Below, piece by piece: positions 8,753 through 42,980 of a stretch of 64,000 nt of DNA (position 1 is its first letter; each line of letters begins with the position of its first letter). A model generated the notes under the pieces. The model saw nothing but the letters and a program-made list of their open reading frames with translations, searched no databases and was not told the DNA's origin. The translations under genes were made by a program, and so were the position numbers. The DNA is from Naegleria gruberi (lineage: Eukaryota): assembly GCA_000004985.1 (NCBI GenBank), contig GG738932.1; one strand, written 5' to 3'.

Positions 8753-8767
8753 TTTTGGCGCCAAAAA
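8753..8767. promoter_or_regulatory. Palindromic TTTTGGCGCCAAAAA element (E2F/DP-type consensus TTTSGCGC) in a divergent promoter region
   Basis: The GC-rich palindrome ggcgcc flanked by T/A runs recurs four times in the window, always intergenic: 8753, 24556, 40066 and 42965. Confidence 0.35.
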
Positions 8768-9127
8768 TCAAAGTTCTTTGGAACCAAGAAAAAATATTGA
8801 GTTTGGGTGCGATGATAATGATCGTAATTATTAGAGGAGGAAATCAATGGTTACACAATCAAACAATCAAACCCTTGAGAAGTCATCAATTCTGCTAATG
8901 TATTAATTAATAATTCAATGAGTGGTTAATTATCAGCCTGAACCCCAAGCAGGATACATTAAAAATTGAACGAATTGCAAATATCACCCTTAATCATCAC
9001 CTTGCTTACTTTTTTTCCATTCTTCCTGGAAATATGAAACATTCAATAGTCGCAAAGCCCCAATCAGAGATGTTACACTTCATAATCATCAACATCACAC
9101 ATTACAGTATGTGAAACTAACCAATCA

Positions 9128-10642
9128 ATGAGCCTAAAATCCAACATTTCAAAAAAAAAAGCAAAAAAGTCTCCGCTCATCACATCTCTCTCTTCATTGA
9201 TTTTTTTTAAATTATTGAAAATTCTAATGATGAAGAACCTCGGACTAGTAAAGATCATTATGATCGTCATGATGATGTTGGTATTTGTGAGTACAGTTGA
9301 TGCTGCTGCTGCTTCAAATGTTCCATCACAAGTTCACTTGGCATTGACAAGAAATAGTAGAGAAATGATTGTTTCATTCCATACTGAAGGTTATGATAAG
9401 GATGTTTTGGGAAAGGCTCAAGTAATGTATAGTACGAATGAAAATTTCCAAGATTATCAAGTAGCTCATCTTGGAAGTGTCAGTACAACTTATGGAGAAT
9501 CTGCCAAGACTGGTTATGAACATCATGTCTTGTTGGTTGATTTGGAATACTCGACCAAGTATTATTACAAGTGTGGATTTACCAAATCTACCGATATTCA
9601 ATCTGAAGTTTATTATTTCCACACAAGAACTGATCCAAAACAATCTGAAAGTAAGCAAGTGTCAGTATTAATGTATGGAGATCAAGGAACAACCAACAGT
9701 GCATATGTCATTGCTAGAAGCAAGCATTTTGTTAATTCATTCTATGACAAATCTGATAGCAAACACAAGAACATGTTTGTTTATCATTTGGGAGATATTG
9801 GTTACGCTAACGACTTTGCAGGAGCTCAATATCAATTTATTTGGACCAAGTACATGAAAATGTTGTCTGATTTCATGCCATATGCTCCATATATGGTTTG
9901 TGTTGGTAATCATGAAAAGGGACCAAAGAATCATCCATATGATGAATTTGAAATTCCATTCAAAGCTTACAATTCTCGTTTTTACATGCCAGGTAGAAAT
10001 GAATCTGCAATTGGACATAATATGTGGCACGTTTTCGAATATGGTCCAATTACATTTGTTGCTGTTGATACTGAAACTAATTTCCCAGGAGCTCACTTTG
10101 GAAAGTATGATGATCATTTCCATGGAGAGCAATTAAAGTGGTTGGATGAAACATTATCACAAGTTGATAGAAAGAAGACCCCATGGTTGGTAGTTGTGGG
10201 CCATCGACCAATTTACAGCTCAACTAAAGAATTCTCAAATGAACATGGTGATCCAATTGGAGATTCCAAAGTTTTACAAGATGCTTTTGAGGAAGTTATG
10301 TACAAGTACAAGACTGATATTTTCATGGTTGGTCACGTTCATAGTTATGAAAGAACATATCCAGTTTATAAAACCAAAGTGGAAACCAAATCAAATTATC
10401 ATAATTTGAGATCACCTATTCATATTGTCAATGGTGGTGGAGGAAACATTGAAGGACAAACTAAGGCTGAATCATTCCATAATCATGATTGGAGTGCTGA
10501 CATTTTCTATAAGGATGAAGGATATGGTATTTTACATACCAATTATGATGAAAAGACCAAGGTTTACTCCCTAAAGTTCAATTATCATGAATCCAAGACT
10601 GGATCTGTAGTAGATACTATTACTATCTCCAAAGATCAATAA
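9128..10642 (+). CDS. Purple acid phosphatase (binuclear metallophosphoesterase), secreted
   Basis: All five PAP metal-ligand blocks are present in order: GDIGYANDF (GDxG/GDxxY), GNHE, VVGHRPIY, GHVHSYER. The probable true start is ATG 9227 (MMKNLGLVKIIMIVMMMLVFVSTVDA), giving a signal peptide. The track ORF start at 9128 adds an unlikely basic extension. Confidence 0.85.
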   Translation: MSLKSNISKKKAKKSPLITSLSSLIFFKLLKILMMKNLGLVKIIMIVMMMLVFVSTVDAAAASNVPSQVHLALTRNSREMIVSFHTEGYDKDVLGKAQVMYSTNENFQDYQVAHLGSVSTTYGESAKTGYEHHVLLVDLEYSTKYYYKCGFTKSTDIQSEVYYFHTRTDPKQSESKQVSVLMYGDQGTTNSAYVIARSKHFVNSFYDKSDSKHKNMFVYHLGDIGYANDFAGAQYQFIWTKYMKMLSDFMPYAPYMVCVGNHEKGPKNHPYDEFEIPFKAYNSRFYMPGRNESAIGHNMWHVFEYGPITFVAVDTETNFPGAHFGKYDDHFHGEQLKWLDETLSQVDRKKTPWLVVVGHRPIYSSTKEFSNEHGDPIGDSKVLQDAFEEVMYKYKTDIFMVGHVHSYERTYPVYKTKVETKSNYHNLRSPIHIVNGGGGNIEGQTKAESFHNHDWSADIFYKDEGYGILHTNYDEKTKVYSLKFNYHESKTGSVVDTITISKDQ

Positions 10643-10743
10643 AATGTCAATTTAGTTACAGACAAGATATTGGAATTAAACTGTTTTGAATTCTGTATTC
10701 TCAATATTACTTCAAAGCTAAAAAATTTGAAGATAAAATTATC

Positions 10744-10816
10744 TGCTGACGGACGGGATCGAACCGGCGACCAATGGCTTATTAGACCAACGCTCTACCG
10801 ACTGAGCTACGCCAGC
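10744..10816 (-). tRNA. tRNA-Ile (anticodon AAT), 73 nt
   Basis: Reverse complement is GCTGGCGTAGCTCAGTCGGTAGAGCGTTGGTCTAATAAGCCATTGGTCGCCGGTTCGATCCCGTCCGTCAGCA. It folds as a cloverleaf with anticodon loop CTAATAA and T-loop TTCGATC, and resembles eukaryotic tRNA-Ile(AAT). Positions 27:43 (T.T) and 50:64 (C.T) are mismatched by my hand fold. A TTTT terminator lies 6 nt downstream. Confidence 0.6.
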
Positions 10817-11032
10817 TTCATGTTTTAGTTATAATATATTCTTCATATATTTATCATTTAAATATAATCATATGGAATTTCAATATTGTGTTGATGATGA
10901 TTATTTATAAATTCGCTCACTTTTGATTTAACTGGTTATTGTACTTGTTACCAGTATGTGGCAATATGTTTGTATCTTGCTTGTGTGAAGTATTATTAAT
11001 AATTATTAATCAATTCACAAAAAAATCTTTTA

Positions 11033-13192
11033 ATGCCTAACCTTGAGACTCTGAAGGAGACAGCAAGATCGGAGCTTTGCGATATTCTTGATTCGGTTTG
11101 TTATCATCACATTTATTATAATAACACAAGCAATCGAACAATATTTGTTTATCAATCATCTCATCTTCAATTAAATAATATATTATTATTAATTAATTCA
11201 TCAACATTAACAACAAAATAATAGATAAACGGAGACAAGATTCTTGTCCTTGATGAACAATTAATTGGACCTCTTGGATTAGTTGCCCCTCTGGCACTTT
11301 TAAAAGAACTTGGAGTTAAAAAACTATTTAAATTGAATGATAGAACATTTGATACCAATTTTGCAAATATTGTCTATATTGTGAGACCAAAGATGCACTT
11401 GATGAAGTGGGTTGCTAATCAAGTATCCTACTGGGTCAAACAAAAAGAAGATTTAGATCGAATGATGTCGGAAAAGCTGAAGGAAAAGAAGAACACAAAA
11501 AACAAAAAGCAACAACCTGAAGAAACCAATGAAGAAACATATACACCACCAACCAATTTCCACCTCTATTTATTACCTAAAACATCATTAATTTGTGTTG
11601 ATATCTTGAAGGATTTGGGTGTTTATCCACATTTAAGAATTTCCGAATATCCTTTGGATTTAATTGTCTTTGATAATTATTTAATGTCTTTGGAACTTCC
11701 TTCATCATTCAAGGAATGCGAATTGGATGGTGATTTTTCATCACTGTATTATGTAGCACGATCTATTATGAAGTTACAATCCTATTTTGGTTTGATACCA
11801 AATGTTAAATTTATTGGATCGGGTGCAACACATGTCTCTGAAATGATCATGAGAATGAGAAAGGAAGTTGGTTCACAAGCTTTTGCTTCTGTTCCAGAAA
11901 TTAACACATTAATTTTGATTGATAGAAATGTAGATTTAATTACTCCAATGTTAAATCAATTTACTTATGAAGGAATGATTGATGAACTTTTGGGAGGTAT
12001 TACAAATACCTTGTTTACAACTCAACGTGTACCTGAAGCTGCTACTATTGCTAAAAAGATTGCCCTCAATTCTTCTGATAATGTTTTTAATCGTTTGAGA
12101 CATCTCAATCACAATAGAGCTGGTATTGCAATCAATGAAATGGCTATTGAATTTAAATCCAGAGAAGATAAGGCAAGAGAAATCAAAACATCAGATTCTA
12201 AAGTTTCCATTGAAAAGATCAAGGAAGTTACTAAAATGTTACCACAAATTCAAGAAGACAAAAAGTATTTGGAACTTCGTAAGTTTTAAATTTCATGCAA
12301 TTCGTTACTAACACACATCCAAGACACCAAAATGATGCTTGAAATTAGATCAATTATTGGAAAGGTTCCTTTCAGAAGATTAATTCAAACACAGAAGAAT
12401 GTTCTTGATGGTGAGGATGAAAAGGAAATTATCGAATATATTGAAGAAACAATTGACAAGCAATTACCACTTACCAACGTTCTGCGTGTCATTTGTCTCT
12501 ATTCACTAATTAATGGAGGTATTAAGAATAAGGTTTTTGAAAAATTGAGAAGAGAAATTATACAAAGTTATGGACTTCAAGCATTGCCAACTCTCAACAA
12601 TTTGGAAAAGATTGGCATGCTCAGAAAGCAAGACTCCAAGTCTGTCAGTAATTGGAATTTACTGAAAAAGACATTTAATCTTGTAGATGAAGCTGCAATG
12701 GAAAGAACCAACGAGGAAGATGGTCAATATGATCCTCACTTGGTTTACAATGTCTATTGTCCAATAACTGTTGCTCTTGTCGAACATGCCATGACTGAAG
12801 AAAAGGGATGGAGAAGAGTTGAACCTGTTTTGAGTAAGCTTGCTCCAGGCCTTTATGGAGAATTATCTCAAACAGGTTCCCAAGATACTCAACTCGGAAA
12901 GAAGGTTGTCTTGGTTTACTTTATTGGAGGTGTTACTTTTGCTGAAATCAGTGCCATTACCTACTTGAATGAAAGAAGTAACGATTGTGAATACATTATA
13001 GCAACAACCAAGCTCACTAATGGATCCACATTTTTGGAAAATCTTGTTGAGGAAATTCCTGAAGATAGACAATCATTCAAAAAGAAAGCAAGCAGCGATT
13101 CCTATGCCCTTTTCTACGAAGAGCCACCAAAGGAAGGTGCTGATGCTTCATCATCTTCTGGAACAGCCAAAAACGGTCAACAAGATGTGTAA
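11033..13192 (+). CDS. vps33: Vps33 (Sec1/Munc18-family HOPS/CORVET subunit), 3 exons, ~662 aa
   Basis: Exons 11033..11095, 11225..12278 and 12324..13192 are joined in frame. Intron 1 is gtttgt...aatag. Intron 2 is gtaagttttaaatttcatgcaattcgTTACTAACacacatccaag. The product (MPNLETLKETARSELCDILDS|INGDKILVLDEQLIGPLGLVAPLALLKELGV...) aligns along its length to human VPS33A: IDRNVDLITPMLNQFTYEGMIDE vs [23 protein letters not shown], and VVLVYFIGGVTFAEISAITYL...IATTKLTNGSTFLENL vs LIFFLGGVTFAEIAALRFL...IATTKLMNGTSWIEAL. The TTG start at 11333 in the ORF track is an artefact. Confidence 0.8.
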
Positions 13193-13638
13193 ATTATATT
13201 AAATAATACAACCACCACAATTAATTCCATACTATTAATACAATAATATTAGAATCCCAATATATTTATTAAGAATTTAAACTCACAATATTTGATGATG
13301 CCTAAAGTCATAAAAAGTGTAACAAATCATCTCCTCCATAAATGTTGTTTTTGTTTACCCTTTGTAACCGAATCTAACCTAATGTTTCATTGACAACTTA
13401 ATAGGAACGCAGTACTGAGCCATCTCTCTAGAATTTAAGGATATTGTCAAGAAGTGTCAAAAAGCATCACTACAAACGCTCAGTCTCTACTAGGATAATC
13501 GAACACCTGGCTCGTTGATCAATTTTATCTTGCCACTCATTCAGGCGTTTTTATTTCTCAAAACGAACAAATATGCAAAATGATGGGTATGGTTGGTTGT
13601 AGAGGAAACAACATCACCAAAAAACAAACATCAAGAAA

Positions 13639-19332: not shown

Positions 19333-19377
19333 AGGTTATGAAAATTAAAAAAGAAATACCATGATTTAAAAGGAAAC

Positions 19378-19449
19378 GGGGACCAGTGGGAATCGAACCC
19401 ACGGCCTCTCGCACCCAAAGCGAGAATCATACCACTAGACCATGGTCCC
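19378..19449 (-). tRNA. tRNA-Pro (anticodon TGG), 72 nt
   Basis: Reverse complement is GGGACCATGGTCTAGTGGTATGATTCTCGCTTTGGGTGCGAGAGGCCGTGGGTTCGATTCCCACTGGTCCCC. It is near-identical in its core to canonical eukaryotic tRNA-Pro(UGG), with anticodon loop TTTGGGT. A T-rich terminator (tttccttttaaa) lies immediately downstream. Confidence 0.8.
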
Positions 19450-19829
19450 TTACATATCATATACAAAATATAATGTTTTTAGATGGTTCATATATGTTAC
19501 GTATGCTGAAGAAAGAGAGGCAGTGCTCTGGGCTGCGAGTTTGCTGGTACAACCAGTAGATGTTATTGTGGATTAATAGTCATGTTACTGGTTAGAAGCC
19601 AATTTCTGTCTTGTAAAAGACTGCTCCAAAACATCAATAAAAGAATAATAATCCGATGTTTACATCTACTATCATTATTTGATCATCACCAACCTTCTAC
19701 TCACACATCAACTTCTCATGAAGGAAGGGAAAAGGAAATTAATCATTCTTGGATTGTCTTATTTTTTTTAAAATAGAAAATAATTTTATTAAAAATTATT
19801 TATTAATCCAACGGTAACTAACAACTAAA

Positions 19830-22800
19830 TTAGAAGGCAGCAGAAACCAATACAATAATCACCATCAAGAGCATATTCATTCCAATAGAACAAGCACCAG
19901 AAACAATAGAACTTCTTGGAATGACAGTATTATTACTTGCTGAAGGTGAAATTGGAGTAGTTGAAGTGCCTGGTTCTGGAACAGTATCTTGTCCTGATCT
20001 TACTTCATTGGTTACATCAAAGAATAGAGAGGCCATCTTCAATGGATCAACATCTGGATTAGCAGAAACACCACAAGATGAAACAGAATCCCAGGTCTTA
20101 ATTTCACTTGAAGTGATATATCTGGATGTCTCTTCAGTGCCTTGATCTCCAACGAAACGAATATTATCGAGGATCATTTCTCTGTATTGTCCATTGTTGT
20201 TTAAGGAGAAGGCAAATCTACTGAATGGTTGAACTCCTTGGAATCCCAAATCAGTGAGAGGATATCTAACTCTGGTAACACGAGTGTCATCAATCTTGTA
20301 GTGTTGAATGTAGGTTGCATTGGTTGTAATACCTCTACCAATGGTAATGAAAGCCTTGGATGTAGTATTGTACCAAGCAAAGGCCAAGTTCAAATCAATG
20401 GATCCAGAGCTATTGGTTCCCTTAATGAAGAATTCAAAGTATTTGAAAATACTGGTATCCACATTGACAACTGAACCTCTGTAAAGTTGGAAACCTCCCT
20501 TCTTGAGTCCAAAGTAATAAGAAGAATTACCACAAATTGGATTGAATGGATAGGTAATGTTGGCAACGTAGTAATCAGGACTAGCTCCAGCATATGGACC
20601 ATTGGTGAATCCAGTTGACTTGAAAGTAGCTCCTTCATCATACAATGTAATAACTTCAGAAGCATTCTTGACAGTACATGGAGAAGTGATTGGAACTGCT
20701 GGTGGCAAATTACATTTACCACTACAGTACAATTGAGCTCTCAAGTGACCTGTTGGATTTTCAATACTGGAAACCTTTACGAAAATTCTTCCCTTCAACA
20801 AGTCAACCCATTCTCCATAAGACAATTGCAAACCAAATCTACTTTGAGAATATGGAGATGGAACATAGTTATAGTGATCATTCTTTCAACAGAACCAGGA
20901 GCACCGACACCAACTTCAACCAAAGTAGCCCTATTATTCATATTGTGATGGAGAACAATATCCAATAATCTGTCATTATAATTGAGGAAGGCAAAAACTG
21001 AACCAACAGCTTGGGAAGAACCAGAAGCCAATGGAGAAACAGCAGCTTGTTGACACATTTCCAAACGACCTACAAATCTATCTTCCTTCATGTAAACTCT
21101 ATAAGTTTCTCTTGGATTTGATGGAAGACTTTGGGTGGCTCCACAATAATCATTTGGACAAGTGGCTGTAACATTGATTGCAGCTGAACTACCATAATTA
21201 CCATAATCAACAAAGCCATACCATTCCTTCTTACCACTCTTGGAGTTGGTATTCTTCAACTTGATATAAAAGTGACCAGTTGTGGCATTGAAATAATAAC
21301 ATTGTGTTGGGAAGTTAATGACATCTTCCAGAGAGTCACATAAATTGAGAGTTTTTGGATCGTTACTACTTGTTACACTGAATGTAGTACCAAGTGGATA
21401 TTGAGCAACAAAAACAGCCCAATCACCAGCACCAGATGATTGCATATTCAAATTCATTGGATTTGGAGGTGGAAGATCCCAGTTAAACTTGATAGAATAG
21501 AAACCACGAGCTGGAATGTTTGCCTGCATGGCAAAGTCGCCTCCACTGGATTGGACACCTGACACTGTACCTTGAATACCTCTCAAGAGATCAGTGAGTA
21601 TTAATCTCGGAACTCTCTTTGAATTATCCTTAAAATCAGGATGTGAAACACCATTTGGATCGATAATTACTGAAGAAGAAATGTTATAATTAGTTACTCT
21701 TAATTGGAAGTATGATTCTCCCATCAATGGACAAACTGAAGCATTATTCCAGTCATATCTTGTGATACAACCTTCAAAGTTTTGAATTGGGTCAGTACCA
21801 CTAATCCAAGCACCAGCTTCTACACCAGTGATTGAACCATCGATATCCATGAGAGCAGCACCCTTGTGATTTTCATAAGTGACAGTATCCAAGAATACTC
21901 TTTGGGGCGAGTTTTCAAACTTTAAATCACAATATCTATTTCTAGTATGGAGTCTGAAGAAGTTATCAAGGACTGACAAACAACCAGCTCTCTTATACTT
22001 GTCAGTGACAAAGTTTCTGAAAGTGACATTTCTCAATAATTCAGCACCACCATTATCATAAGTTTCATAACCCTTAATAACAGTAGTGGTTGAGTAGTAA
22101 GCATTTGGTCTTGTTCTATTACCAATATCAACAGATGGTCTCAAAGTATAATCACCAACATTCTCAGATTCAGCAATCATGATAGAATCAGTAATGTATG
22201 AAGTACCAGGTGGAGAGTTCATTTGTCTCATATTATCAGTCAAGTACAAGTTTTTGAAAACAATATTACCACAACGAGCCCAAATACCATAACCTCTCAT
22301 TTTGTAAGCAGTAAAGTTATCAATTAGTGCTTCAATAGCTGGATAATAACCTGCCAATTCAGTTGTACCATCAGATTTTTCCATATCGTCAATGAATAGA
22401 CCATTTTGACCACTGTGAGCTACATTTCCTGAAAATGGCTTTGGAGGAGCAGTTCTAGGATTGATAGAACCTGGAGCATACAGGGAGGCACTTGCACCTG
22501 TTGGGAATGTTGGCATTCTAAAGTAAAATTTAAACATTAACTATGAACAAATTGTAATAACTTACGTAAACCAAAAAGAATGCTTTCCACCCATTGCATG
22601 GTTATCAACGAATGTATTGTTTGGATTAGTAATCCAAAAAACAGCAACATCACTGTCAGATGGAATTAAACGATATGCCAAATCATAAACTGGCTTTGGA
22701 CGAATTCCCAAATTATGTTTGAAAACATTTCCGACTTCAGAACCATCTTCCAAAAAGTAACAGTGACCATTGGCATTGAAGCAGACATTATCTTGAAGCA

Positions 22801-24555: not shown

Positions 24556-24570
24556 ATTTTTGGCGCCATT
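24556..24570. promoter_or_regulatory. ATTTTTGGCGCCATT element (E2F-like palindromic core)
   Basis: Second instance of the TTGGCGCCA motif. It lies in the 1.4-kb intergenic region between the G8 gene start and the 25255 gene. Confidence 0.3.
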
Positions 24571-30797: not shown

Positions 30798-30999
30798 TTT
30801 TTAATTTGTGCTTTATCAATTCTGGCATTTACAATTGTTTACAAGATTCCCTGTTGAATATTGATATAACTTTACAGTTTACCTGGTTTTTTCCGGTTTA
30901 CACTTGAATTTGGTCGAGACACTTTAACTTTTATATAAGATGGATACCATAAGATAGAACCTTAGATAGTCGTTGTGTATTTTATGATACATATGTATT

Positions 31000-31083
31000 C
31001 CGGTGATAGCTCAGCTGGTAGAGCATGGTACTGTAGTTGTAACAGTTCTCCCGTGGTCGGCGGTTCGAGTCCGTCTCGTCGGA
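31000..31083 (+). tRNA. tRNA-Tyr (anticodon GTA) with an ~11-nt intron 3' of the anticodon
   Basis: The 5' half CCGGTGATAGCTCAGCTGGTAGAGC..ACTGTAG matches the canonical eukaryotic tRNA-Tyr 5' half, which is CCTTCGATAGCTCAGCTGGTAGAGC in human. The T-arm is GGCGGTTCGAGTCCGTC and the acceptor is CCGGTGA/TCGTCGG+A. An inserted ttgtaacagtt (about 31037..31047) pairs with the anticodon loop (CTGT/ACAG), as pre-tRNA-Tyr introns do. A TTATTTTGGCTATTTTGG Pol III terminator follows directly. The anticodon stem has one mismatch in my hand fold. Confidence 0.6.
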
Positions 31084-32453
31084 TTATTTTGGCTATTTTG
31101 GTCAAATTGAGTTAAAAATATTAAGGATGGTTCAACACATATTTCAATCCAATTGCTGAAAATTATCCAACTTCCATCCTTATTTTTGTAAACTTTATTT
31201 AATGATAAGAAAAGGATGAAGAAGTTTATCATTATCTATGGCAATTCCTTTTATTGATTCTCCGAGAAGGAATATTCCAAAACAACAGCATATCTCAATT
31301 TCATGTATTTTTCAGATTCGAATCTTTGTATACAAAGATTTCATTCCAAATCACCGGTGATGAGATTTTTTCGAACCACTACAGTTTTATTGTAATCACA
31401 GTAGATCAAAACTGTAGATCAAGTTTAGGTGATTGTATAATTTGATCAGAGTCAATTTAGGAAAACTTGTAATATGAATAAGAAGAAATTAAACGAATGG
31501 TGGCGAAACATACTTTTAAGAACCTGTAAGGCCTCCATATGGTTAGATCATCTAACTTGTAGATTTTGCTTCCTGTTGTTTCGAATCGTCCAATGTAATT
31601 CGTTCAGAATAGTCTAAAACAAATTCTAAATTGGTAATATTCCACATCCGAAGATTTTACATAGAATGGAACAATATCACAACAATCAACTCATCTTGAA
31701 GTAATTTACCCTTTTCGATCAATCGTTACATTTTCGAATAGTGCCATTGCTGTTTCTAATAGTTTAATTTCATGTACTTCTATGTATTTTTTAATCGGTC
31801 AAGGAATACATTTCACGATCATCCTCAATCTCCAAATTTCATCAATTCTGTACATTGTCCTTTCCAACAAAGTTTCGAATGGCATTATCGAACGAAAGAA
31901 AAAATTTTGAAATCTCCATTGAAATCCTGAAAGAGAAACTTTCTACATTCGAAAAGTTGCCACCTCACACTTCTATCCTCAAATCATGTATTCAAAATTG
32001 CATCCTTTTCATTAAATTCTAAACCAGACGAAACCATTCCCTCAAATCCTACTCAATTATACAAAACGAAATCGTTTCAGTCAACCAACTCTACTCTCCT
32101 TTTCAAGATCTTTCCAATTCTCCAAAACCAGCATCACAGGTTCATTTCAATTTTGTTCATTTTACAATTTATCAAATTTTCCCAAAAACCTTCCAGTCAG
32201 GCCTCTAAATAGTTGAAAACATTTTTCTGCATCTAGCTGTATCCACTTCCAATCTCGTCCAATCGCTCCTTTTTCATCCAAGAGTCCAAACATTACTGTC
32301 GCACTGGTTTTTTTCGTTACACCGCTTTTTATTTGTACTATGGTGATTCTCGAATATACTAGCTGATTCTCCATAACATTCATGAACAATGACATGAATA
32401 TACGAGCTAGAGTAGTGAGGGAATGGAGGAATGCATAAGAAGACAACAACACC

Positions 32454-33587
32454 ATGTCCCAATTCAGCAGAATATTCAAAAAAAAAGAAACAACAACACC
32501 CACACAATTTCTTCTTTTTGATTTTACAAAACTAATTTATATGATAATCGATATGAATCCTAATTCATTCTCGTCAAGAATTGTTACTGTTTCCTCCTCC
32601 TCATCGTGCAATAGTAATAATACTTCAACTATTGCTCGTACATCCAATAATGGTGGATCGATTAGTAGTAACAGATCAACTGATTTGAATCAAGATCAAA
32701 TTTTTGCACCCAATGCTTGGTGGAGAAGTTTTGGTAGTTCTGCTCAACAAGAACAATATGATAATTTGATTTCAATGCCATCATCAGGAAATGTCATTCA
32801 AGAAGTGAGTGGTGACAGCTGCAGTGCTATTGACTGGGAGAGTTTCTTTGCTCCTTCTTCATGTCATTACGAACCTAAGGTAACAGCAATTCCAACTTCC
32901 CGTGAACAAGTTTCCTGTAAAATTACAATCAACCCTAACTGTACCGAAAATAGTTTCAATAATTATTCAACAACAACGACAACAAACACAACAAATACAA
33001 CTAACAACGCCTCTAGTCTTGATGGAATGATTACCATGCTGAATAGAATATTAATAATGAATGGTGTCAATCCAGAGTCTAATCAATGCCAAATGCCTTC
33101 TGTTTCTTACCAACATTCTAATTTGGAAACGATTCCTTCCACATATGTTAACCAAACTGCCCATTTTACTTATAATCCAATTCAATCCATTGCTGAAGTG
33201 CATCATCAGAATTACAATACTTTGCCAAGTCAATCCCAACTCAATACTTCACTTTCTTCTTCATCCGATAGTGATAGCACAGGTAGTCAACATTCGAGTA
33301 ATTCTATCGGAAAGGACAGATGCAAAATCTCAAAGAAGAGAACCACAAGACCTAGGCTCAAATTCCAAAAGGAAACTGACAAGTCAATCAAGTTTAATCT
33401 AGTAACAAGTGAAGAATTGGCTGCCAGTTTACAATTTCATGAAACTTCGGCGCCAACTAGTGGAAAGAGAAATAGAGGAAGACCAAAGAAATCGGATTCA
33501 TCTCCTCAAAAACCTAAAGCTGATCAGTCGACAACCATTGAATTTATGGTCAATTGTTATGATCAATGCAGTAAAATTTTCAAATAA
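32454..33587 (+). CDS. N/S/T-rich low-complexity protein with C-terminal AT-hook (GKRNRGRPKK); probable chromatin/DNA-binding protein
   Basis: 377-aa ORF with an AT-hook core RGRP flanked by basic residues and a KKRTTRPRLKF basic tract. The start may instead be the Met at about 32540 (MIIDMNPNSF). A long CT/A-rich leader-like region lies at 31850..32450. Confidence 0.5.
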   Translation: MSQFSRIFKKKETTTPTQFLLFDFTKLIYMIIDMNPNSFSSRIVTVSSSSSCNSNNTSTIARTSNNGGSISSNRSTDLNQDQIFAPNAWWRSFGSSAQQEQYDNLISMPSSGNVIQEVSGDSCSAIDWESFFAPSSCHYEPKVTAIPTSREQVSCKITINPNCTENSFNNYSTTTTTNTTNTTNNASSLDGMITMLNRILIMNGVNPESNQCQMPSVSYQHSNLETIPSTYVNQTAHFTYNPIQSIAEVHHQNYNTLPSQSQLNTSLSSSSDSDSTGSQHSSNSIGKDRCKISKKRTTRPRLKFQKETDKSIKFNLVTSEELAASLQFHETSAPTSGKRNRGRPKKSDSSPQKPKADQSTTIEFMVNCYDQCSKIFK

Positions 33588-33723
33588 TTATAAAAACAAT
33601 TTTTCAATAATTCTTCTAATTATTTCACAATTTTAACGAATGTCATCTCTCACATATTGTTTCAATGTTGAAAAATAGAAAAATTGTGAAAAGTTCTATT
33701 CCAATAAGAATCACCATAACCTT

Positions 33724-35646: not shown

Positions 35647-36564
35647 TCTTTGTATTGTTGATGATGATGAAACTCTATATGGGATGACTACTAGTTCCCT
35701 CTATATTGAAAGATGAGTAGATATCTATTTAAATCGGGATGGATAATGACTTGTTGTTGCTCCAGAGAGAGATGTATTCAGGTAAGTCACTTTATTCGGG
35801 TGTGTTTGTTGTTCTATGAATAAAATTATTTTTTTTTGAAGTGAATTTGTTGAAGTTTGCTGAGAAGTTTTCTTTTTTTTGAATATTTTTCAAAGTTATT
35901 TTTGGATCGTGTTGAAGAATGCATTCTTGATTTCAATGTACAATTTTATTTGTTGGTGAAGCTAATAAAAGAATTGATGAAGAGAATTCCCTTTAGATAG
36001 AAGATATTGGAATTAGTGTTGGAATGCTGATTGATGAATTTGTATTATCCAAAGATTAAATCTTGTTTTGCCACAAGTTACCGTTGCATAATTTCTTTTT
36101 GCAAATTAAAAAAAAATTACAGCAAGCCATCACACAGCAAAGAATATTTCATCCACATCCAATGGATTCTTAATTCTGTTCTTGTTAAAAGGTCAAAACA
36201 ATCTTTTACGCAAGCTAAAGCACAACATTTTTACTGGGTAACATGGCCTCCATTGCATCATCAACAATGTTCATCAAAGCCACATGTCGTATCAAAAGGT
36301 TCAACTTGTGGTCGTTCTCGTCCTCCAGTAATATCAAAAAGGAAGAGCAGTAGAAAAGACAGTCAATGTTTCGGGAGATGATAATAGTGGTCGTTTCAAT
36401 CTTCTGCTCCTCTTGAGGTTCTAATCAAATTCCATCTTGTAAATCTTAAAAATAATTTATTAAAAAAAAATTGAACAGATCATCACACAACTATTGTGAT
36501 TTTTATCATCAGTTTTAAATAATAATAATAGAAAAATACTTTTTAAAAATCATCACAGTACAGG

Positions 36565-37206
36565 ATGGGCTTGATGGATATATTTCATAAAAAGACTCCG
36601 GAAGAGTTGGCTAAAGAATGGAAGAAGGGATTAAAATCGGAAGTGAGAAATATGGATAGAGGTATTAGAAAGATTGAAATGGAGGAAATAAAGGTAAAGA
36701 ATAATATTAAAATGATGGTCAAGAAGGGACAAGAAGATAATGCTAAAATTGTTGCCAGAGAATTAATTAAAACTAGAAAGGCAAAGGAAAGGCTGATCAG
36801 AACAAAAGCTCAAATGAATTCCGTTATTTTACAATTGGATCAACAAGTGCAACAACTCAGAGTGATGGGAGCTTTACAGAAGAGTGCCGATGTAATGAAA
36901 TGTATGAATGAAATGATGAAATTACCAGATTTACAAGCAACGATGAGAAACATGTCCAAGGAAATGGAAAAGGCAGGTTTAATAGAGGAAATGGTTGATG
37001 ATATGATGGAAGATGTTTTTGAAGATGAGGATGTTGAAGAAGCTGCTGATGAGGAAGTTTCTGAAGTATTGAATGAAATTTTGGAAAATGTCAAATCAAC
37101 AAGAGTTGGATCATCAAAACTTCCACAAAAACAAGTTGAAGAAGAAGAGGAAGAGGATGAATCAGAATTGGAACTTCAAAAGAGATTATCATCTCTTAGA
37201 AATTAG
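36565..37206 (+). CDS. vps24: ESCRT-III subunit Vps24/CHMP3 (Snf7 family), 213 aa
   Basis: Collinear with human CHMP3. MGLMDIFHKKTPEELAKEWKKGLKSEVRNMDRGIRKIEMEE...KKGQEDNAKIVARELIKTRKA...AQMNSVILQL...LRVMGALQKSADVMKCMNEMMKLPDLQATMRNMSKEMEKAGLIEEM aligns to MGLFGKTQEKPPKELVNEWS...KKGQKDVCIVLAKEMIRSRKA...AHMNSVLMGM...LRVAGSLQKSTEVMKAM...IQATMRELSKEMMKAGIIEEM. It has an acidic C-terminal tail. Confidence 0.85.
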   Translation: MGLMDIFHKKTPEELAKEWKKGLKSEVRNMDRGIRKIEMEEIKVKNNIKMMVKKGQEDNAKIVARELIKTRKAKERLIRTKAQMNSVILQLDQQVQQLRVMGALQKSADVMKCMNEMMKLPDLQATMRNMSKEMEKAGLIEEMVDDMMEDVFEDEDVEEAADEEVSEVLNEILENVKSTRVGSSKLPQKQVEEEEEEDESELELQKRLSSLRN

Positions 37207-37448
37207 ATATTTCGAACAAAAAACAATTATTTATTATAATATCTAGAGTTTAATAGTCTTCGTCCTGATTGCCAATGATCTGGACAGTTTGTAAAATATA
37301 AATTTGTAAATTTTGTTTTTTTAACAATTATAACTTACAGGAAGTGAATTATCACCAGTCGAATAACCTTTATATTCATCATTTCTTTGTTCTACACTAG
37401 AATAATGAGGCTTCACTATTAAAGTTCTTAATGTCAAGTTGTTGAAAG

Positions 37449-39857
37449 CTACTTACTAGGAGCTAGAGCCTCCAAAATCCACTCATGACGGAATGCTTCT
37501 TCTGGAGTCATTCTTTCAACTGGATCCCATCTCAAACAAGCTTCCATAAAGGAAACAAATTTTCTGTCTGGACAGTCAAGAGCTTGCTGGAGTGTGACAC
37601 TTCCTGGAATTCTCTTCTTGCCAGTTTTCTTGTTAATCACTAACCTAGGTTGACCATTAGAGTCGAAGAATTTCTTTCTTCTTGTACTGATCTGAATTAA
37701 TTTCTTGGAAGGCATTCCCATAACTTCCATAATATAACACAATTGTTCCAATTCGTTTCTTCCTGGGAATAGAGGATATCCTGTATATAATTCAGCAAGA
37801 ATACATCCAAAACTCCACATATCAATTGAACGACCATAAGAAATACCTAGAATAATTTCTGGAGATCTGTAAAATCTTGACTGAATATATGTATAGATTC
37901 TTTCATTTTCAAAACATGAACTACCAAAGTCAATCATCTTGATATCTGATTTTGTGGAAGATACCAACAAGATGTTTTCAGGTTTGAGATCGCAGTGAAT
38001 TATCTTTTCTTGACTCAAATATTGTAAAGAATTCAATATTTGCAAGGCGAATTTTCTGATTAGAGCCAAACTTAATCCTCTAAAATTGTTATTCTTAATG
38101 AACTCATAAAGGTTAATACTCAGTAATTCAAAAGCAATACATAAATGTTGTCTGAAAGTAAAGTAAGCAACCATTTCTATACAGTGGTGCTTTCCTTCCT
38201 TATCGTTATCTTTAAGATGTTTCAATATTTTAACTTCAACAAGAGCTTGGGCGTGGAATCTCTTTCTATTCCTAATCACTTTGAGAGCTACAAATTTGTT
38301 TTCCTTAACATCGTGGGCCTTGACTACTTGACCAAAACTTCCCTTTCCCAAAAATCCAACAACTTCATATCTGTAACCTATATGATCATTCAAAACAAGT
38401 TTGTAATCACCCCTTTCATCGTCATAACCAAAGTTCATCTCCTCGTTGGCATTTACTGTTCCCTTAATCTTTCTCGCTGTGCTACCTATACAGTACACTT
38501 TGTGGAAATCGAAAATTTCAGATTGCTCGTAATCTGTCAAGTAATCACTATACATTTTTATGGCAGCAGCTGGAGTGATTGGATCATGGAATTTAAGATT
38601 CACATTTCCACCTGTATTAGAACTAGAAGTTCTAATAGACCTCACAGAGGAAGACCTAGAACTTGGATTTGATTGTTGATTACTAGTTGTTGTACTTGTT
38701 GATGAGGCAACATCGAACACTGTTGTTTTATCTTCCGACGTATATTTGAAAGGAAGATTTTGGAATGAAGTGGTTTCTGCATTGGCAGCTCTTGCACTCA
38801 TTGGCATTGATGGCTGTTGTTTGGCTGTGGTATTTCTAGCAGTCTTGACAGTTTCTGGAACTCCTGACCCAAATCCTTCAAATTCCACATCTTTCATATA
38901 GTTGGCTGTTTGCAAATTCAAATTGAGTTTAAGGGTTGGAGGTTGAGCAGATGCTCCACTAGTTGGAGGATGTGGAACCAAATTACTTTGTGAGGAAGGA
39001 TTGGCAAAGTTATATCTTCTGGCACTATTAGGTGCTGTCGTTTGAGAGTGACCACTGCTGACTGTGCTTGGTTCTTCTGTTGCATAGCTCTGTGAAGAAA
39101 TGACAGCAACATTTGAAACTGAGGGTTTTCTTGGCACTGGAGGTCTTGGAGTGAGATAGGAAGCAGCTCCAATATTAGCAGTGATGATTGTTTCCTTTTT
39201 TGTTCCAGATGATGATGTTATTGATTTTGTCGAGTTGGTTTTGGAGACTGTTCCTATTCGTTTTGTGGTTCCTTTAGTGTAGCCTACCGTGTTTTGCTTA
39301 GTGTTTGGACTGATATTCCTTGGAGTGTTCATTGTGCTTTTTTGATTTGTTATTGAAGATGAAACTAGCCCTCCGATTTGAGGTTGGGAAGGATAGTATT
39401 GATATCGTGGAGTGTTATTTGTACTAGCTACATTGTGAGATGGTGGTGTTTTGTACATTTGTCGAGCAGAATTATATCCTCCTACCGAACCTCTATTTGT
39501 GGAACCTCTACTTGAAGGGGGTCCTCCAGTAGGTGTCTTTTTCGAGTTCTGTAATCCATTCAGATTCAAACTCAAACTTGGTGGTTGTTTTTTTGGAGCT
39601 GTGTCTGAAGAAAAAGGATTCAATTCATCCGAACTAATCAGAGCATTTAAGATTGATGTTGTCGAGTTTAGTTGATCGATTTCCAGAGGAGGAACGCCAG
39701 ATTTATATTTTCTTCCTGGACTTTGGTAAGAAGGGACCGGGTTATTGGTATTGGTATTATTAGATGGAGGACTTGGCATCATGATGTACGTTCCTCGCTT
39801 ATCGGCTCCATTTCTAACCAGCATTACTCCACCACTTGATGAGTCCTTATTATTCAT
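37449..39857 (-). CDS. DYRK-family dual-specificity protein kinase (DYRK2/Pom1-like) with long S/T/N/P-rich N-terminal region, 802 aa
   Basis: It has a DH-box-like GYDDERGDYKL. The kinase domain has GKGSFGQVVKA, VALKVIRN, HCDLKPENILL, DFGSS, the activation-loop YTYIQSRFYRSPE (the DYRK YxY motif), and DMWSFGCILAEL. Confidence 0.85.
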   Translation of the reverse strand: MNNKDSSSGGVMLVRNGADKRGTYIMMPSPPSNNTNTNNPVPSYQSPGRKYKSGVPPLEIDQLNSTTSILNALISSDELNPFSSDTAPKKQPPSLSLNLNGLQNSKKTPTGGPPSSRGSTNRGSVGGYNSARQMYKTPPSHNVASTNNTPRYQYYPSQPQIGGLVSSSITNQKSTMNTPRNISPNTKQNTVGYTKGTTKRIGTVSKTNSTKSITSSSGTKKETIITANIGAASYLTPRPPVPRKPSVSNVAVISSQSYATEEPSTVSSGHSQTTAPNSARRYNFANPSSQSNLVPHPPTSGASAQPPTLKLNLNLQTANYMKDVEFEGFGSGVPETVKTARNTTAKQQPSMPMSARAANAETTSFQNLPFKYTSEDKTTVFDVASSTSTTTSNQQSNPSSRSSSVRSIRTSSSNTGGNVNLKFHDPITPAAAIKMYSDYLTDYEQSEIFDFHKVYCIGSTARKIKGTVNANEEMNFGYDDERGDYKLVLNDHIGYRYEVVGFLGKGSFGQVVKAHDVKENKFVALKVIRNRKRFHAQALVEVKILKHLKDNDKEGKHHCIEMVAYFTFRQHLCIAFELLSINLYEFIKNNNFRGLSLALIRKFALQILNSLQYLSQEKIIHCDLKPENILLVSSTKSDIKMIDFGSSCFENERIYTYIQSRFYRSPEIILGISYGRSIDMWSFGCILAELYTGYPLFPGRNELEQLCYIMEVMGMPSKKLIQISTRRKKFFDSNGQPRLVINKKTGKKRIPGSVTLQQALDCPDRKFVSFMEACLRWDPVERMTPEEAFRHEWILEALAPSK

Positions 39858-40065
39858 GATTTGAGCTATTATTCTCTCGAGGTGATGTATTTTTCTTATT
39901 AAATCCTCAAGTTATTATCGTCGACAAGTGAGAATAACTACTGATGATGACGTAAACAGGAGAGAGTAATCTTCTTTTCAATTAGAGATTATATCCACCA
40001 CACTATTTTCCTCAATCAATTCCTGAGAGATAGAACAGCTAATTTTTTTTTTGGGTTTTTTCAAG

Positions 40066-40081
40066 AATTGGCGCCAAATTT
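40066..40081. promoter_or_regulatory. AATTGGCGCCAAATTTTT element (E2F-like palindrome), ~210 bp upstream of DYRK start
   Basis: Third instance of the TTGGCGCCAA motif. Confidence 0.3.
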
Positions 40082-40749
40082 TTGCTGTAGATGCATCTAA
40101 GCGTTATTGTTGTTGAAAATGTAGATTTGTTGATCCAAAATATATAACTATGATGTAATTATTGTCTTGTTGTTATTGTTCAAGGGACAAATTACCATTG
40201 AAACTGCCTCACGAACGAACTGTTTTCAACCTTTTACCACCACTGTGTGTTTATTTTAAACGCAACAATTACCTCAAACCCTCAACAATGTAATAAACAA
40301 GGAAATTCGTATGGAGAATTGTTCCTGTCCAATAGATATGATGATTCTTAATTGTTGATTATATGCTAATTTTCATCCATTGAGAAGGATGCATGCTCTA
40401 CTCCAATATAAAATGAAAGGAAGTAACAAGTTTTGGAAAATGTACAACAAGTTTCATAATCCATCGATTCAACAACTGTACGACCCTCAACAGAACCAAC
40501 CTCTCTTCTAACTGAACAACGATCGTAAATTACAATTTATATTATCTTCTTGTGATGATGGGAAGTGATGATTCTTTAATAACACTACCTTTCAAAAAAT
40601 CAAAAAACAAAAACTTGATACATTCTTTCTTGTCATTATTCCTCATCACAATAAATTCATCATCATCAAGTTTATTATAATTTTTTTAAAACAATTTCAT
40701 AACGGAACTATTTGGAGCCTTAAAATTATTCCTTACATTTTTTAAAAAA

Positions 40750-42441
40750 ATGCTTAAAAACAGTTTTAATTCAACCTCAATGATGAGAAAGAAAATTTCC
40801 TCCAAGCTGGAAAATAGAGAGGAATTCGGAGCGAAGGAAATAATTACGAGGAATGATAAGGTGGAATATACAATTATGAATATTCATGATAGGAGGGCTG
40901 ATGAGGACAATTTAAAAAAGAATCAACGACAATTGAATGAAATTCTTACAAGAACTTTATATGAGGCACAACGTAATTTGAGTGATTTGTCTAGTTTGAC
41001 AAAGAAAAAGTTGGGTCCGAAGGCATTACTCTATCAACAACAATCACTGGTGGATGATACTGATCCATTATCTGCCTTGGGTGATGTTGGAAACTTTGAT
41101 TCAGTTAGTGAGGAAGATGGAATCAAGACAGATAAGCTTGATGAACTCGGCTCGACAACAATGTCATCGAGCATCATGAAGAAGGCCAGTAATAACAAGT
41201 TGAATGCCATGACCGAGAATCTCATGTTGAATCAATTAATTGATCTTGTCGATCAGAAGAAGAGAGAAAAACAACAGGAAGGTATCTTTGATAATTCTTT
41301 GAGGGAAATCTTTTTGAGAACAAGAGGTCTCATTGAAAACTTGTGGGATGAAATGAACATTGAAGACTCTGAGAGAAGAGATTTCTCCAGAAGATTCTTC
41401 TACCCTGAAACGCTAATTAACTATGTTTCCATCTTTAGAGAAATTACGCGATTGACTGGAGTAAGATCCATTCAACACGATGTCTTAACGAGTTTGGAAC
41501 AAAGAGAAGTCTACATTAAGAGACTGAAAGAAATTGCAATGCAATTCAACGGATATAGGGCTGGGGCATCTTCACTCATGGGTAGATTGCAAGATCCTAT
41601 GGTAAAGAATGAAATTCCGACCATTGTCTCCAATTTGAGAAATGTAACAATAGAACTTGTGGAATCTATTCTATTGTGGAGAAGTCAACTTACGAAGAAA
41701 ACTGTATTTTTATATAACGGAGAGAATTACATGCTCAAGATGAGAAATGATGTTGACTTTTTGAAACTTACAGAACTGGCTCCATTATTTGAAATTGTTG
41801 GAATTACAATTGATTCCAATCCATTACTATTACCTGATGATGTAAGAGGAAATAACAATATTTCATTCGATGAATATGTGAATGAAATCTTGAATGAAGG
41901 TGATGAGAATATCAATAAGAGCCAAACCGCATTGACTCTTGTGGAACACTATCAATCTAAGAGAGATCACGACAAGAAACAAGCCAATAGATTTAATGAA
42001 GACCAAAATCTTCAAAACATTCCTCGTGTTCTCAAAATCAACTTGCCTTTCGCTTACATGGAAAGATTGAGAAGATCAGACAAGTTCATCTTCCAAGAAG
42101 AATTGTACATTAAACTATTAGAAGATAGAGCAATGAGAGATCAAGCAGCTACAAAAATTCAAAGCCAGTGGAGAAGCTTCCTTGCCAGAAGATACATGAA
42201 GAGATTGAAAATGGAAACCAAGAAGGCTGCAGCTTACACGAATTCGAATAACTTCCTCAATCAACAAAAGAAACAAACTTTGAGAAATGAGGCAGTCATC
42301 CGTAATCTTCCAAAGAAAATTGAAGCACTAACAACAAAGGATTTGATTGAGGAATTGGAAAAGAATAGAAAGGCCGATGTTTTCCTTGATTCTCTCAATA
42401 TTTCAGGACGTTATTCAACTTCCATTTTCGATTTTGAGTAG
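40750..42441 (+). CDS. Coiled-coil protein with C-terminal IQ motif (AATKIQSQWRSFLARRYMKRLK); family not recognised
   Basis: 563-aa intron-less ORF predicted to be mostly helical, with a conserved-looking central block FYPETLINYVSIFREITRLTG...ILLWRSQLTKKTVFLYNGENYMLKMRNDVDFL. Confidence 0.5.
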   Translation: MLKNSFNSTSMMRKKISSKLENREEFGAKEIITRNDKVEYTIMNIHDRRADEDNLKKNQRQLNEILTRTLYEAQRNLSDLSSLTKKKLGPKALLYQQQSLVDDTDPLSALGDVGNFDSVSEEDGIKTDKLDELGSTTMSSSIMKKASNNKLNAMTENLMLNQLIDLVDQKKREKQQEGIFDNSLREIFLRTRGLIENLWDEMNIEDSERRDFSRRFFYPETLINYVSIFREITRLTGVRSIQHDVLTSLEQREVYIKRLKEIAMQFNGYRAGASSLMGRLQDPMVKNEIPTIVSNLRNVTIELVESILLWRSQLTKKTVFLYNGENYMLKMRNDVDFLKLTELAPLFEIVGITIDSNPLLLPDDVRGNNNISFDEYVNEILNEGDENINKSQTALTLVEHYQSKRDHDKKQANRFNEDQNLQNIPRVLKINLPFAYMERLRRSDKFIFQEELYIKLLEDRAMRDQAATKIQSQWRSFLARRYMKRLKMETKKAAAYTNSNNFLNQQKKQTLRNEAVIRNLPKKIEALTTKDLIEELEKNRKADVFLDSLNISGRYSTSIFDFE

Positions 42442-42467
42442 TAATTCAATAAATAATTTATGTACAA

Positions 42468-42938
42468 TTATTGTTCTAGAAGTTTGGGTAATTTTTCCTT
42501 CGCCATATCTTTGATTTCCTGTTTGATTTGTGACTCTGATTTTCCTTCTCTATTCTTCATAATTTCTGGTCTTATTTTCTCGATGTGTTCCTTTAATAAT
42601 TTACTGTATGGATTATTTTCCAAATTTTTCGAATGTTTTGGATTATTTCTAATAAGATACATGGCAATCCAATTAATCGGATCGATCTTTGAGTAGATAG
42701 TACTCTTTAATTTTTCATATTCTTGTTCCTCTTCCGATTTCGGATCAACTGTTGAATACTCCTTTAATAAGGATTGAAAAGCAGGAATCAGCACTCCCAA
42801 AATATTTTCCTCCAAATAAAACGACAGCTCATCGCCACCCTCCCGAGCCAATCTAATGGTTGTTTCATCCTCTCCGAGCGATTCCTCAACATGAAAATTG
42901 TATTCGTGATGAAGAGGCGAAGCAAAGTGCTTTTTCAT
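42468..42938 (-). CDS. Small acidic protein with a possible Dpy-30-like motif (DPINWIAMYLIRNNP), 156 aa
   Basis: FYLEENILGVLIPAFQSLLKEY...DPINWIAMYLIRNNPK resembles the Dpy-30/RIIa-like dimerisation motif (YL..xV.P.L..GL..L...RP.DPI.FLA.YLL.NNP), but is interrupted by an insert. Its stop lies only 26 bp from the stop of the convergent 40750..42441 gene. Confidence 0.4.
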   Translation of the reverse strand: MKKHFASPLHHEYNFHVEESLGEDETTIRLAREGGDELSFYLEENILGVLIPAFQSLLKEYSTVDPKSEEEQEYEKLKSTIYSKIDPINWIAMYLIRNNPKHSKNLENNPYSKLLKEHIEKIRPEIMKNREGKSESQIKQEIKDMAKEKLPKLLEQ

Positions 42939-42964
42939 TTTTTTAAAGAATTTTTATCGTAGTT

Positions 42965-42980
42965 ATTTTTGGCGCCATTT
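42965..42980. promoter_or_regulatory. ATTTTTGGCGCCATTTT element (E2F-like palindrome) in the 160-bp divergent promoter between 42938(-) and 43098(+)
   Basis: Fourth instance of the TTGGCGCCA motif. Confidence 0.3.

Follow-up and report, generated by a model that had tools for sequence, protein, structure and literature searches.

The genes for atypical E2F factors in animals and plants (mammalian E2F7 and E2F8, the plant DEL genes) are themselves E2F targets and form a negative feedback loop. Naegleria gruberi is free-living, is related to the brain-eating N. fowleri and represents the deeply branching Discoba; to our knowledge almost nothing is known of promoter elements in Naegleria. The E2F/DP site of animals and plants follows the consensus TTTSSCGC / GCGSSAAA (as quoted in PMC4862756), with the palindromic TTTGGCGCCAAA as its high-affinity form. 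In Dictyostelium, expression analysis of an rblA mutant has delimited an S-phase and mitotic regulon repressed by RblA/E2F (PMC3386910). For heteroloboseans, no description of the cis-elements of the E2F pathway was found in the literature searched.

The factors themselves are encoded in Naegleria, and sequences of NgruE2F, NgruDP, NgruDEL and NgruRB are available (PMC4862756, supplementary files 4 and 6). Pfam identifies the E2F_TDP domain in NgruE2F, NgruDP and NgruDEL, with E2F_CC-MB and DP domains also found, and NgruDEL, the E2F7/8-like protein, carries two E2F_TDP domains. The recognition motif RRXYD is present as RRIYD in NgruE2F and NgruDEL and as RRVYD in NgruDP. The DNA-binding domain of NgruE2F matches human E2F4 in the structure 1CF7 with E = 7e-25, and a stretch of 24 residues covering the recognition helix is identical.

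The window, by which we mean the whole 64,000-nucleotide stretch of N. gruberi DNA analysed, contains 46,342 real bases; it has a gap of 50 Ns at 45128-45177 and consists of N padding from 46343 on. Scanning it placed TTGGCGCCA at 8755, 24560, 40068 and 42969. The sites and the two genes most relevant to them are as follows.

8753..8766, strand not assigned: site 1, TTTTGGCGCCAAAA, a perfect 14-nt palindrome with two overlapping TTTGGCGC half-sites, between the divergent S/N-rich paralogue NAEGRDRAFT_54443 (ATG 8112, minus) and a purple acid phosphatase gene (ORF start 9128, plus)
24557..24570, plus strand: site 2, TTTTTGGCGCCATT, whose plus strand carries one perfect TTTGGCGC half-site; it lies in the 1.4 kb that separate the divergent G8/CEMIP-like gene (ATG 23857, minus) and small membrane-protein gene NAEGRDRAFT_75990 (ATG 25255, plus)
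40066..40079, minus strand: site 3, ATTTGGCGCCAATT on the minus strand, 213 nt ahead of the DYRK start codon (ATG 39857), in the promoter region that DYRK shares with the divergent IQ-protein gene
42966..42981, plus strand: site 4, TTTTTGGCGCCATTTT, between the Dpy-30-like gene (ATG 42938, minus, 33 nt off) and an LRR gene (ATG 43098, plus, 127 nt off)
37449..39857, minus strand: DYRK2/Pom1-type kinase gene NAEGRDRAFT_82249
42468..42938, minus strand: Dpy-30-motif protein gene NAEGRDRAFT_75998

A sequence-only reading of this DNA had reported GGCGCC four times, always in promoter-side intergenic positions. Its four positions are confirmed, all in divergent 5'-5' regions and beside the genes it had named (S/N-rich paralogue, PAP, G8, DYRK, Dpy-30-like, LRR). 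The full count is five, as another copy lies within a coding region at 33449-33454 (ORF 32454-33587, context cttcGGCGCCaact) and lacks the motif flanks. The extended pattern TTTTGGCGCCA(A/T)(A/T)T, given for every copy, is exact at 42967 and off by one base at each of the other three sites. That reading had also allowed that further coding copies might return the count to chance level; the single one found fits chance, and the intergenic excess remains above it. Sites 1 and 2 lie about 370-700 nt from the closest ATG, site 2 being 705 nt upstream of that of the G8/CEMIP-like gene, and no plausible hidden ORF was found near site 2.

The four TTTGGCGCC(A) copies between divergent genes are real and far beyond chance. 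The pattern WTTGGCGCCAWW is matched by all four, against about 0.1 expected and 0.00 in shuffled sequence. Markov estimates over the 46,342 bases give 0.07-0.12 expected copies of TGGCGCCA (four observed) and 0.25-1.1 of GGCGCC (five observed), and the motif excess in the window is 30- to 50-fold. GGCGCC is the commonest of all all-G/C hexamers in the window, where CpG observed/expected is 0.49, and an unbiased 8-mer scan of the intergenic DNA ranked GGCGCCAA, TGGCGCCA and GCGCCAAA top among non-microsatellite words. Placement is skewed too: all four sites are intergenic where intergenic DNA makes up 27% of the window (P = 0.0055), and all four fall in the divergent 5'-5' regions that cover about 16% of it by hand tally from the ORF map. 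The E2F consensus TTTSSCGC itself has six matches in the window against 0.79 expected. Across 170 kb of heterolobosean-type sequence, 12 of its 16 sites are intergenic (intergenic share 22%; binomial 1e-5), a small sample of partly orthologous sites in which orthology inflates the significance. Both sites on one contig, L010, were counted as genic solely from a doubtful 108-aa ORF with no Pfam hit, so that 14 of 16 is arguable.

The octamer TTTGGCGC, which lies within all four sites and on both strands in site 1, equals the consensus TTTSSCGC and contains the central GCGC core. We consider the four elements candidate sites at which the winged-helix heterodimer of Naegleria E2F and DP, and probably DEL as well, would bind, with a probability of roughly 0.78; each is best read as a known kind of site that is new for N. 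gruberi. By analogy with the human E2F4-DP2-DNA complex in 1CF7, the RRXYD recognition helices of E2F and DP would contact the central GCGC. The N-terminal arm of E2F reportedly reads the T run, according to the 1CF7 study. A TTTGGCGCCAAA-like site, consisting of two overlapping half-sites, would be the high-affinity version, and each site, placed in a shared 5' region, could act on either or both of the genes that diverge from it. In cells that are differentiating or not cycling, the RB homologue would keep these promoters off until CDK phosphorylation released them, with DEL as the source of negative feedback. We infer that the factors bind, in which direction they regulate, and on which of the flanking genes they act. 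In common with the canonical animal and plant sites, those of Naegleria have the identical core in T/A-rich flanks, lie close to promoters (in tandem in the DEL promoter), vary at the S-S positions among orthologues and have a cognate factor with an identical recognition helix. They differ in that their host is a heterolobosean amoeba, their neighbours are not replication genes, and they are candidates known from sequence alone. Dictyostelium, likewise a protist, has one RB, one E2F and one DP that control a cell-cycle and developmental gene set (PMC3386910), whereas the Naegleria evidence consists of cis-elements in a tiny gene sample.

Comparison with related species identified which part of the element is under constraint. 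Over 12 sites in six related genomes the invariant unit is TTTGGCGC, followed by C, T or A; it is this asymmetric octamer, not the palindrome, that is conserved. At the DYRK promoter, site 3 is kept as ATTTGGCGCCAA, with 12 invariant bases, at -206 in N. lovaniensis and -217 in N. fowleri. Outside ATTTGGCGCCAA the DYRK promoters of N. gruberi, N. lovaniensis and N. fowleri are unalignable, and its distance from the ATG is alike in all three. The flanks are diverged enough that MAFFT on the whole IQ/DYRK intergenic region misses the N. gruberi site, and the 300 nt next to the ATG were used instead. In assembly GCA_016850925.1, whose DYRK is only 48% identical, the promoter has TTTGGCGCT at -236, containing TTTGGCGC; the chance of finding TTTGGCGC within +/-30 nt in a DYRK promoter is at most 0.001 per species. 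Near-consensus variants at -61 in Willaertia and -91 in ENA contig L009 match the relaxed consensus only. An E2F-type site is thus present at DYRK in all six heterolobosean-type loci sampled, in two of them at the relaxed consensus. DYRK is most likely the gene to assign to site 3 and its best candidate target, because in GCA_016850925.1 the motif stays with DYRK and the IQ gene is not a neighbour.

At the Dpy-30-like promoter, the orthologues carry the E2F-type variants TTCGCGCC and TTTGGCGGG, with GTTCGCGCCAG at -68 in N. lovaniensis and TCCCGCCAAATTTT at -75 in N. fowleri, and the Dpy-30-like gene is likely the best candidate for regulation through site 4. The relaxed consensus TTSSCGS matches only the DYRK and Dpy-30-like promoter sites in the 22.5-kb N. 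fowleri locus, and these make up two of its three matches in the N. lovaniensis locus. Replacements at orthologous sites are S-S variants (TTCGCGCC, TTTGGCGGG, TTTGGCGG and TCCCGCC), which is the degeneracy that defines the E2F consensus GCGSSAAA. Constraint with turnover among consensus variants is seen at the DYRK, Dpy-30-like and DEL sites.

In three Naegleria genomes, the roughly 250 nt ahead of the DEL start codon contain two conserved E2F-type sites. The proximal TTTGGCGC is at -46 in the N. gruberi-like contig L005, -88 in N. lovaniensis and -74 in N. fowleri, and the distal site is TCCCGCC or CGCGCCAAAA. A fourth and more distant contig, L010 from ENA, likewise has two sites upstream of DEL, the proximal TTTGGCGC at 589 ahead of an exon called from 763. 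Neither the 22.5-kb N. lovaniensis locus nor the 2.9-kb L010 contig has any further strict match. A conserved TTCCCTC box, for which there is no known counterpart, adjoins the proximal site. The arrangement resembles the control of E2F7/E2F8 and plant DEL in having E2F-type sites near the start of the gene, and differs in that regulation in Naegleria is deduced from the DNA alone. The E2F-type sites at the Naegleria DEL gene suggest that the feedback loop from E2F to atypical E2F may have existed before Discoba diverged from animals and plants. For the typical E2F gene, no E2F-like site was found in its promoter in GCA_016850925.1 (contig L025, from the same assembly as L008); L025 was the only relevant match of a metagenome scan with NgruE2F, the rest being E2F genes of many unrelated eukaryotes.

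The invariant TTTGGCGC, the S-S variants in orthologues, the encoded E2F, DP, DEL and RB proteins and the DEL-gene sites together support the E2F/DP-type site that had been proposed from the window. Another, possibly lineage-specific, homodimeric factor could instead read the palindrome TGGCGCCA, in which case the likeness to E2F would be coincidental. Full GGCGCC is indeed present in all five N. gruberi-type sites and in the DYRK sites of N. lovaniensis and N. fowleri, sites 2 and 4 have the 16-nt TATTTTTGGCGCCATT in common, and the flanking genes (acid phosphatase, G8, DYRK, IQ, Dpy-30-like, LRR) are not classical E2F targets. However, distant orthologues keep TTTGGCGC only, with the palindrome broken to GGCGCT or GGCGCA, and the replacements CCCGCC and CGCGCC are acceptable to E2F and not expected for a reader of GGCGCC. 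Together with the identity of the recognition helix to that of human E2F4, this makes such a factor unlikely, and we know of no other factor family with the specificity of these sites.

The core bound by atypical E2Fs is the same, flanked by A/T runs, and sites with two half-sites are preferred. The sites could accordingly be bound mainly by DEL, acting with two DNA-binding domains and no DP as a dedicated repressor, in which case they would not serve E2F/DP as activator sites; the two E2F_TDP domains of NgruDEL and the two-half-site form of all four window sites fit this. The second DEL domain is degenerate, however, with RRLND in place of RRXYD, and we regard predominant DEL occupancy as quite improbable. 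Sequence does not distinguish it from E2F/DP occupancy, and it is a sub-case of the E2F/DP reading. Chance clustering, the relic of a repeat or mobile element, and a DNA or RNA hairpin signal such as a terminator are effectively refuted and very improbable. In their favour are the short hairpin into which the palindrome could in principle fold and the 16 nt common to sites 2 and 4. Against them stand the excess over expectation, the lack of flank homology beyond those 16 nt, stems of 4-7 bp with no loop, the position of all sites between 5' ends and none at 3' ends, and the constant distance from the start codon at which the site is kept in related species, as at DYRK.

If the sites are read by E2F/DP, their neighbours raise the possibility, which we rate as improbable, that the Naegleria RB-E2F regulon differs from the classical replication set and includes a DYRK2/Pom1-type kinase, a Dpy-30-motif protein and secreted or membrane proteins. 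Such a regulon might be tied to cell-cycle exit in the amoeba-to-flagellate switch. In vertebrate multiciliated cells, E2F4/5 with Multicilin drive centriole amplification, which would be echoed if the Naegleria RB-E2F regulon serves that switch. Naegleria is without RFX, FoxJ1 and XAP5, and which factors regulate its ciliogenesis is not known (PMC12183034). The conserved and recognisable site offers a starting point for predicting the RB-E2F regulon of these amoebae, and its deep conservation upstream of the DYRK kinase gene makes that gene a concrete new candidate target. These results extend a well-known system to a new lineage and do not overturn its current understanding.

For the IQ protein and the other neighbours, PDB and relaxed Pfam searches showed nothing beyond an IQ motif and, weakly, a Dpy-30 motif; they gave no support to the IQ protein as a relative of PRC1/MAP65, and the identifiers of the flanking genes had no match in the literature searched. 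A CDE/CHR arrangement of the DREAM type was sought at the four window sites, and none has TTTGAA or TTCGAA 4 nt downstream of a GC-rich CDE. The element TTCGAATA was considered as a CHR-like partner and rejected, as it is over-represented in intergenic DNA but equally common within coding regions; a degenerate fifth site at 35873-35905 was likewise rejected. Two CCAAT boxes, at 8733 and 8741, stand beside site 1.

The N. gruberi window is gene-dense, with ~34% G+C; N padding begins after 46,342 real bases, and there is a single 50-N gap at 45128-45177. No other all-G/C hexamer is as frequent in it as GGCGCC. The product of ORF 37449-39857 (-), the DYRK gene, is 100% identical to a protein of N. 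gruberi at NCBI; several adjoining ORFs are also exact N. gruberi matches. CpG is strongly depleted (observed/expected 0.49), and GGCGCC was found five times (8757, 24562, 33449, 40070 and 42971) against 0.25-1.1 expected (Markov order 0-2, real bases). The sequence-only reading had claimed four copies, more than expected by chance; its four positions stand, as does the excess with the coding copy included, but the count overlooked a fifth. This copy (33449-33454) lies within ORF 32454-33587, in codons S-A-P-T and the context cttcGGCGCCaact, without T/A flanks; its reverse strand reads TTGGCGCC, with two T's only, and it is probably a chance occurrence. The other four belong to the following elements.

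8753-8766: site 1, between the genes for an S/N-rich protein and a purple acid phosphatase
24557-24570: site 2, between a G8/CEMIP-like gene and the gene for a small membrane protein
40066-40079: site 3, between the DYRK gene (DYRK2/Pom1-type kinase) and an IQ-motif gene
42966-42981: site 4, between a Dpy-30-motif (Dpy-30-like) gene and an LRR gene

None of these neighbours is a classical E2F target. All four sites satisfy the pattern WTTGGCGCCAWW, whereas the extended pattern originally ascribed to all of them, taken literally as TTTTGGCGCCAWWT, is exact only at 42967 and has one mismatch in each of the other three. TGGCGCCA was observed four times against 0.07-0.12 expected (Markov order 0-2, real bases), and an unbiased ranking of every 8-mer in the window's 12.6 kb of intergenic DNA places GGCGCCAA, TGGCGCCA and GCGCCAAA next below CAT/GAT microsatellite words. 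The top over-represented 8-mers in DNA classed as intergenic, CATCATCA / GATGATGA words such as those at 35660-35672, suggest microsatellites or unannotated low-complexity coding ends.

The promoter-side placement proposed earlier was borne out: sites 1-4 are all intergenic in a window that is 27% intergenic (P = 0.0055), and all four fall in divergent 5'-5' regions, which make up ~16% of it. Seven such regions were tallied by hand on the window ORF map, four of them carrying a site. Hidden ORFs were looked for near sites 1 and 2, and none was found. The sites are not copies of a repeat, since apart from 16 nt common to sites 2 and 4 (TATTTTTGGCGCCATT) their flanks lack homology. Sequence match, statistics and position make sites 1 and 2 candidate E2F sites. 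Two CCAAT boxes lie at 8733-8745, 12-24 nt upstream of site 1.

DYRK loci were compared from N. lovaniensis (L001), N. fowleri (L002), Willaertia magna (L004), GCA_016850925.1 (L008) and an ENA metagenome contig (L009). The element ATTTGGCGCCAA lies 206 nt upstream of the DYRK ATG in N. lovaniensis and 217 nt upstream in N. fowleri, the N. gruberi site being at 213 nt, and provides the only strict matches (TTTSSCGC) in the two 22.5-kb loci. These promoters are otherwise unalignable; when anchored on the ATG, the 12-nt block of the element is the sole long invariant stretch. TTTGGCGC would turn up by chance inside +/-30 nt of a set position with a probability of no more than 0.001 per species. 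In L008, where DYRK is 48% identical, TTTGGCGCT is found at -236 and the IQ gene does not adjoin DYRK, indicating that the element follows DYRK. In Willaertia TTGGCGCAAAA (reverse strand) lies at -61 and is one of two relaxed matches (TTSSCGS) in that locus; L009 carries TTTGGCGG at -91 plus TTGCCGCC at -332, with no further relaxed matches. DYRK is, on this comparative evidence, the best-supported putative target at site 3, and the deep conservation of an E2F-type site next to a kinase gene of the DYRK2/Pom1 type is worth following. A CCAAT overlapping the site 3 element (GGCGCCAAT) is confined to N. gruberi.

On its upstream side the Dpy-30-like gene adjoins another gene in N. lovaniensis and N. 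fowleri than in N. gruberi, yet GTTCGCGCCAG and TCCCGCCAAATTTT lie within 70-120 nt before its ATG in these species; it is the best-supported candidate target at site 4. The relaxed 7-mer occurs at two sites in 22.5 kb of N. fowleri and three of N. lovaniensis, both sets including the DYRK and Dpy-30-like promoters. Orthologous sites vary between GG, CG and CC ahead of CGC, a degeneracy by which the E2F consensus is defined. Strict matches number 16 in the pooled 170 kb of these genomes (22% intergenic), 12 of them intergenic (binomial 1e-5), although the sites are partly orthologous and not independent, and 14/16 is arguable, both sites of the DEL contig L010 being counted as genic solely through a doubtful small ORF. 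An additional palindromic site of N. fowleri, ATGGCGCCAAAA (L007 21630-21645), precedes by 173 nt an uncharacterised gene starting at 21811. A second N. gruberi scaffold (P0089) carries a partial paralogue (111 aa) of the Dpy-30-motif protein (42468-42938), with an identity of at least 90%.

Atypical E2F genes in animals and plants are themselves E2F targets. Homology search with NgruDEL, the E2F7/8-like atypical E2F, gave four DEL loci.

DEL promoters, with the span of the TTCCCTC box plus proximal site
L005, N. gruberi-like ENA contig: DEL ATG 3771 (tblastn); proximal TTTGGCGC at -46; distal TCCCGCC; span 3700-3732
L006, N. lovaniensis: DEL ATG 10001; proximal TTTGGCGC at -88; distal TCCCGCC; span 9890-9920
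L007, N. fowleri: DEL ATG 10001; proximal TTTGGCGC at -74; distal TCCCGCC; span 9905-9934
L010, ENA contig, ~40% identical: first DEL exon called from 763; proximal TTTGGCGC at 589, upstream of the exon; distal CGCGCCAAAA; span 565-596

The two DEL sites are the only strict matches in L006 (22.5 kb), and likewise in the L010 contig. An unknown factor that reads GGCGCC might be proposed instead of E2F, but the palindrome of the proximal DEL site is intact in only one of the four species, the other three reading GGCGCA or GGCGCT, whereas TTTGGCGC does not vary among them, and it is this result that most clearly separates the two explanations. All four DEL promoters keep a TTCCCTC box 5-9 nt ahead of the proximal TTTGGCGC; we know of no counterpart. 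The region upstream of the typical E2F gene in GCA_016850925.1 is without an E2F-like site. The apparent antiquity of an E2F to atypical-E2F loop is worth following.

NgruE2F, NgruDP, NgruDEL and NgruRB are present in the supplementary FASTA files of Medina et al. (PMC4862756). Pfam domains are E2F_TDP and E2F_CC-MB in NgruE2F, E2F_TDP and DP in NgruDP, and two E2F_TDP in NgruDEL. The NgruE2F DNA-binding domain aligns with human E2F4 of the E2F4-DP2-DNA crystal structure 1CF7 (E = 7e-25), a 24-residue stretch being identical. PMC4862756 gives the consensus as GCGSSAAA and assigns contact with the GCGC core to the RRXYD motif. Together these data make an altered DNA specificity of Naegleria E2F unlikely. 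The S-S degeneracy in orthologues, the stretch identical to E2F4 and the conserved DEL sites thus favour the E2F/DP-type assignment first suggested for the sites. To judge from sequence, this is a putative E2F element of the standard kind in a lineage for which we found no earlier description of it within the searchable literature; passages of a 2026 preprint report hundreds of JASPAR motifs enriched in heterolobosean intergenic regions, none of them named there.

Beyond sequence, position, conservation and the presence of the factors, we infer that E2F/DP would be bound to the central GCGC via the RRXYD helices, and DEL may bind the sites too. The promoters would be repressed by RB outside the proliferative state, with CDK activity lifting the repression, and one site at a divergent promoter may serve one or both genes.

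Dinucleotide bias is strong across the whole window, TpA standing at 0.62 observed/expected alongside the CpG depletion. Cytosine-methylation and TET enzymes are present in Naegleria and the element contains a CpG, so the CpG bias may be relevant. The S/N/T/Q-rich paralogues at 539-1147, 1335-2816 and 7360-8112 (all -), one of which flanks site 1, have in common the short motif NN(A/S)(M/I)F(G/A)V, and a Pfam match for the family was not found. A 47-nt intergenic sequence (TGACAAGTGGCGTGAATTGAYAGWGTTTCGAATAGATAAACTTTTGA) occurs twice, at 2946-2992 and 6680-6726, with 96% identity. DNA at 3972-4148, upstream of the annotated start (4300) of a 25-residue-repeat gene, resembles that gene's 3' end (6235-6411; 74-78% identity) and includes one extra repeat unit; it may represent a gene fragment or an upstream exon missing from the annotation. 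Three tRNA genes were also found.

10744-10816 (-): tRNA Ile-AAT, among protein genes
19378-19449 (-): tRNA Pro-TGG, among protein genes
30999-31084 (+): tRNA Tyr-GTA, 86 nt, long enough for an intron
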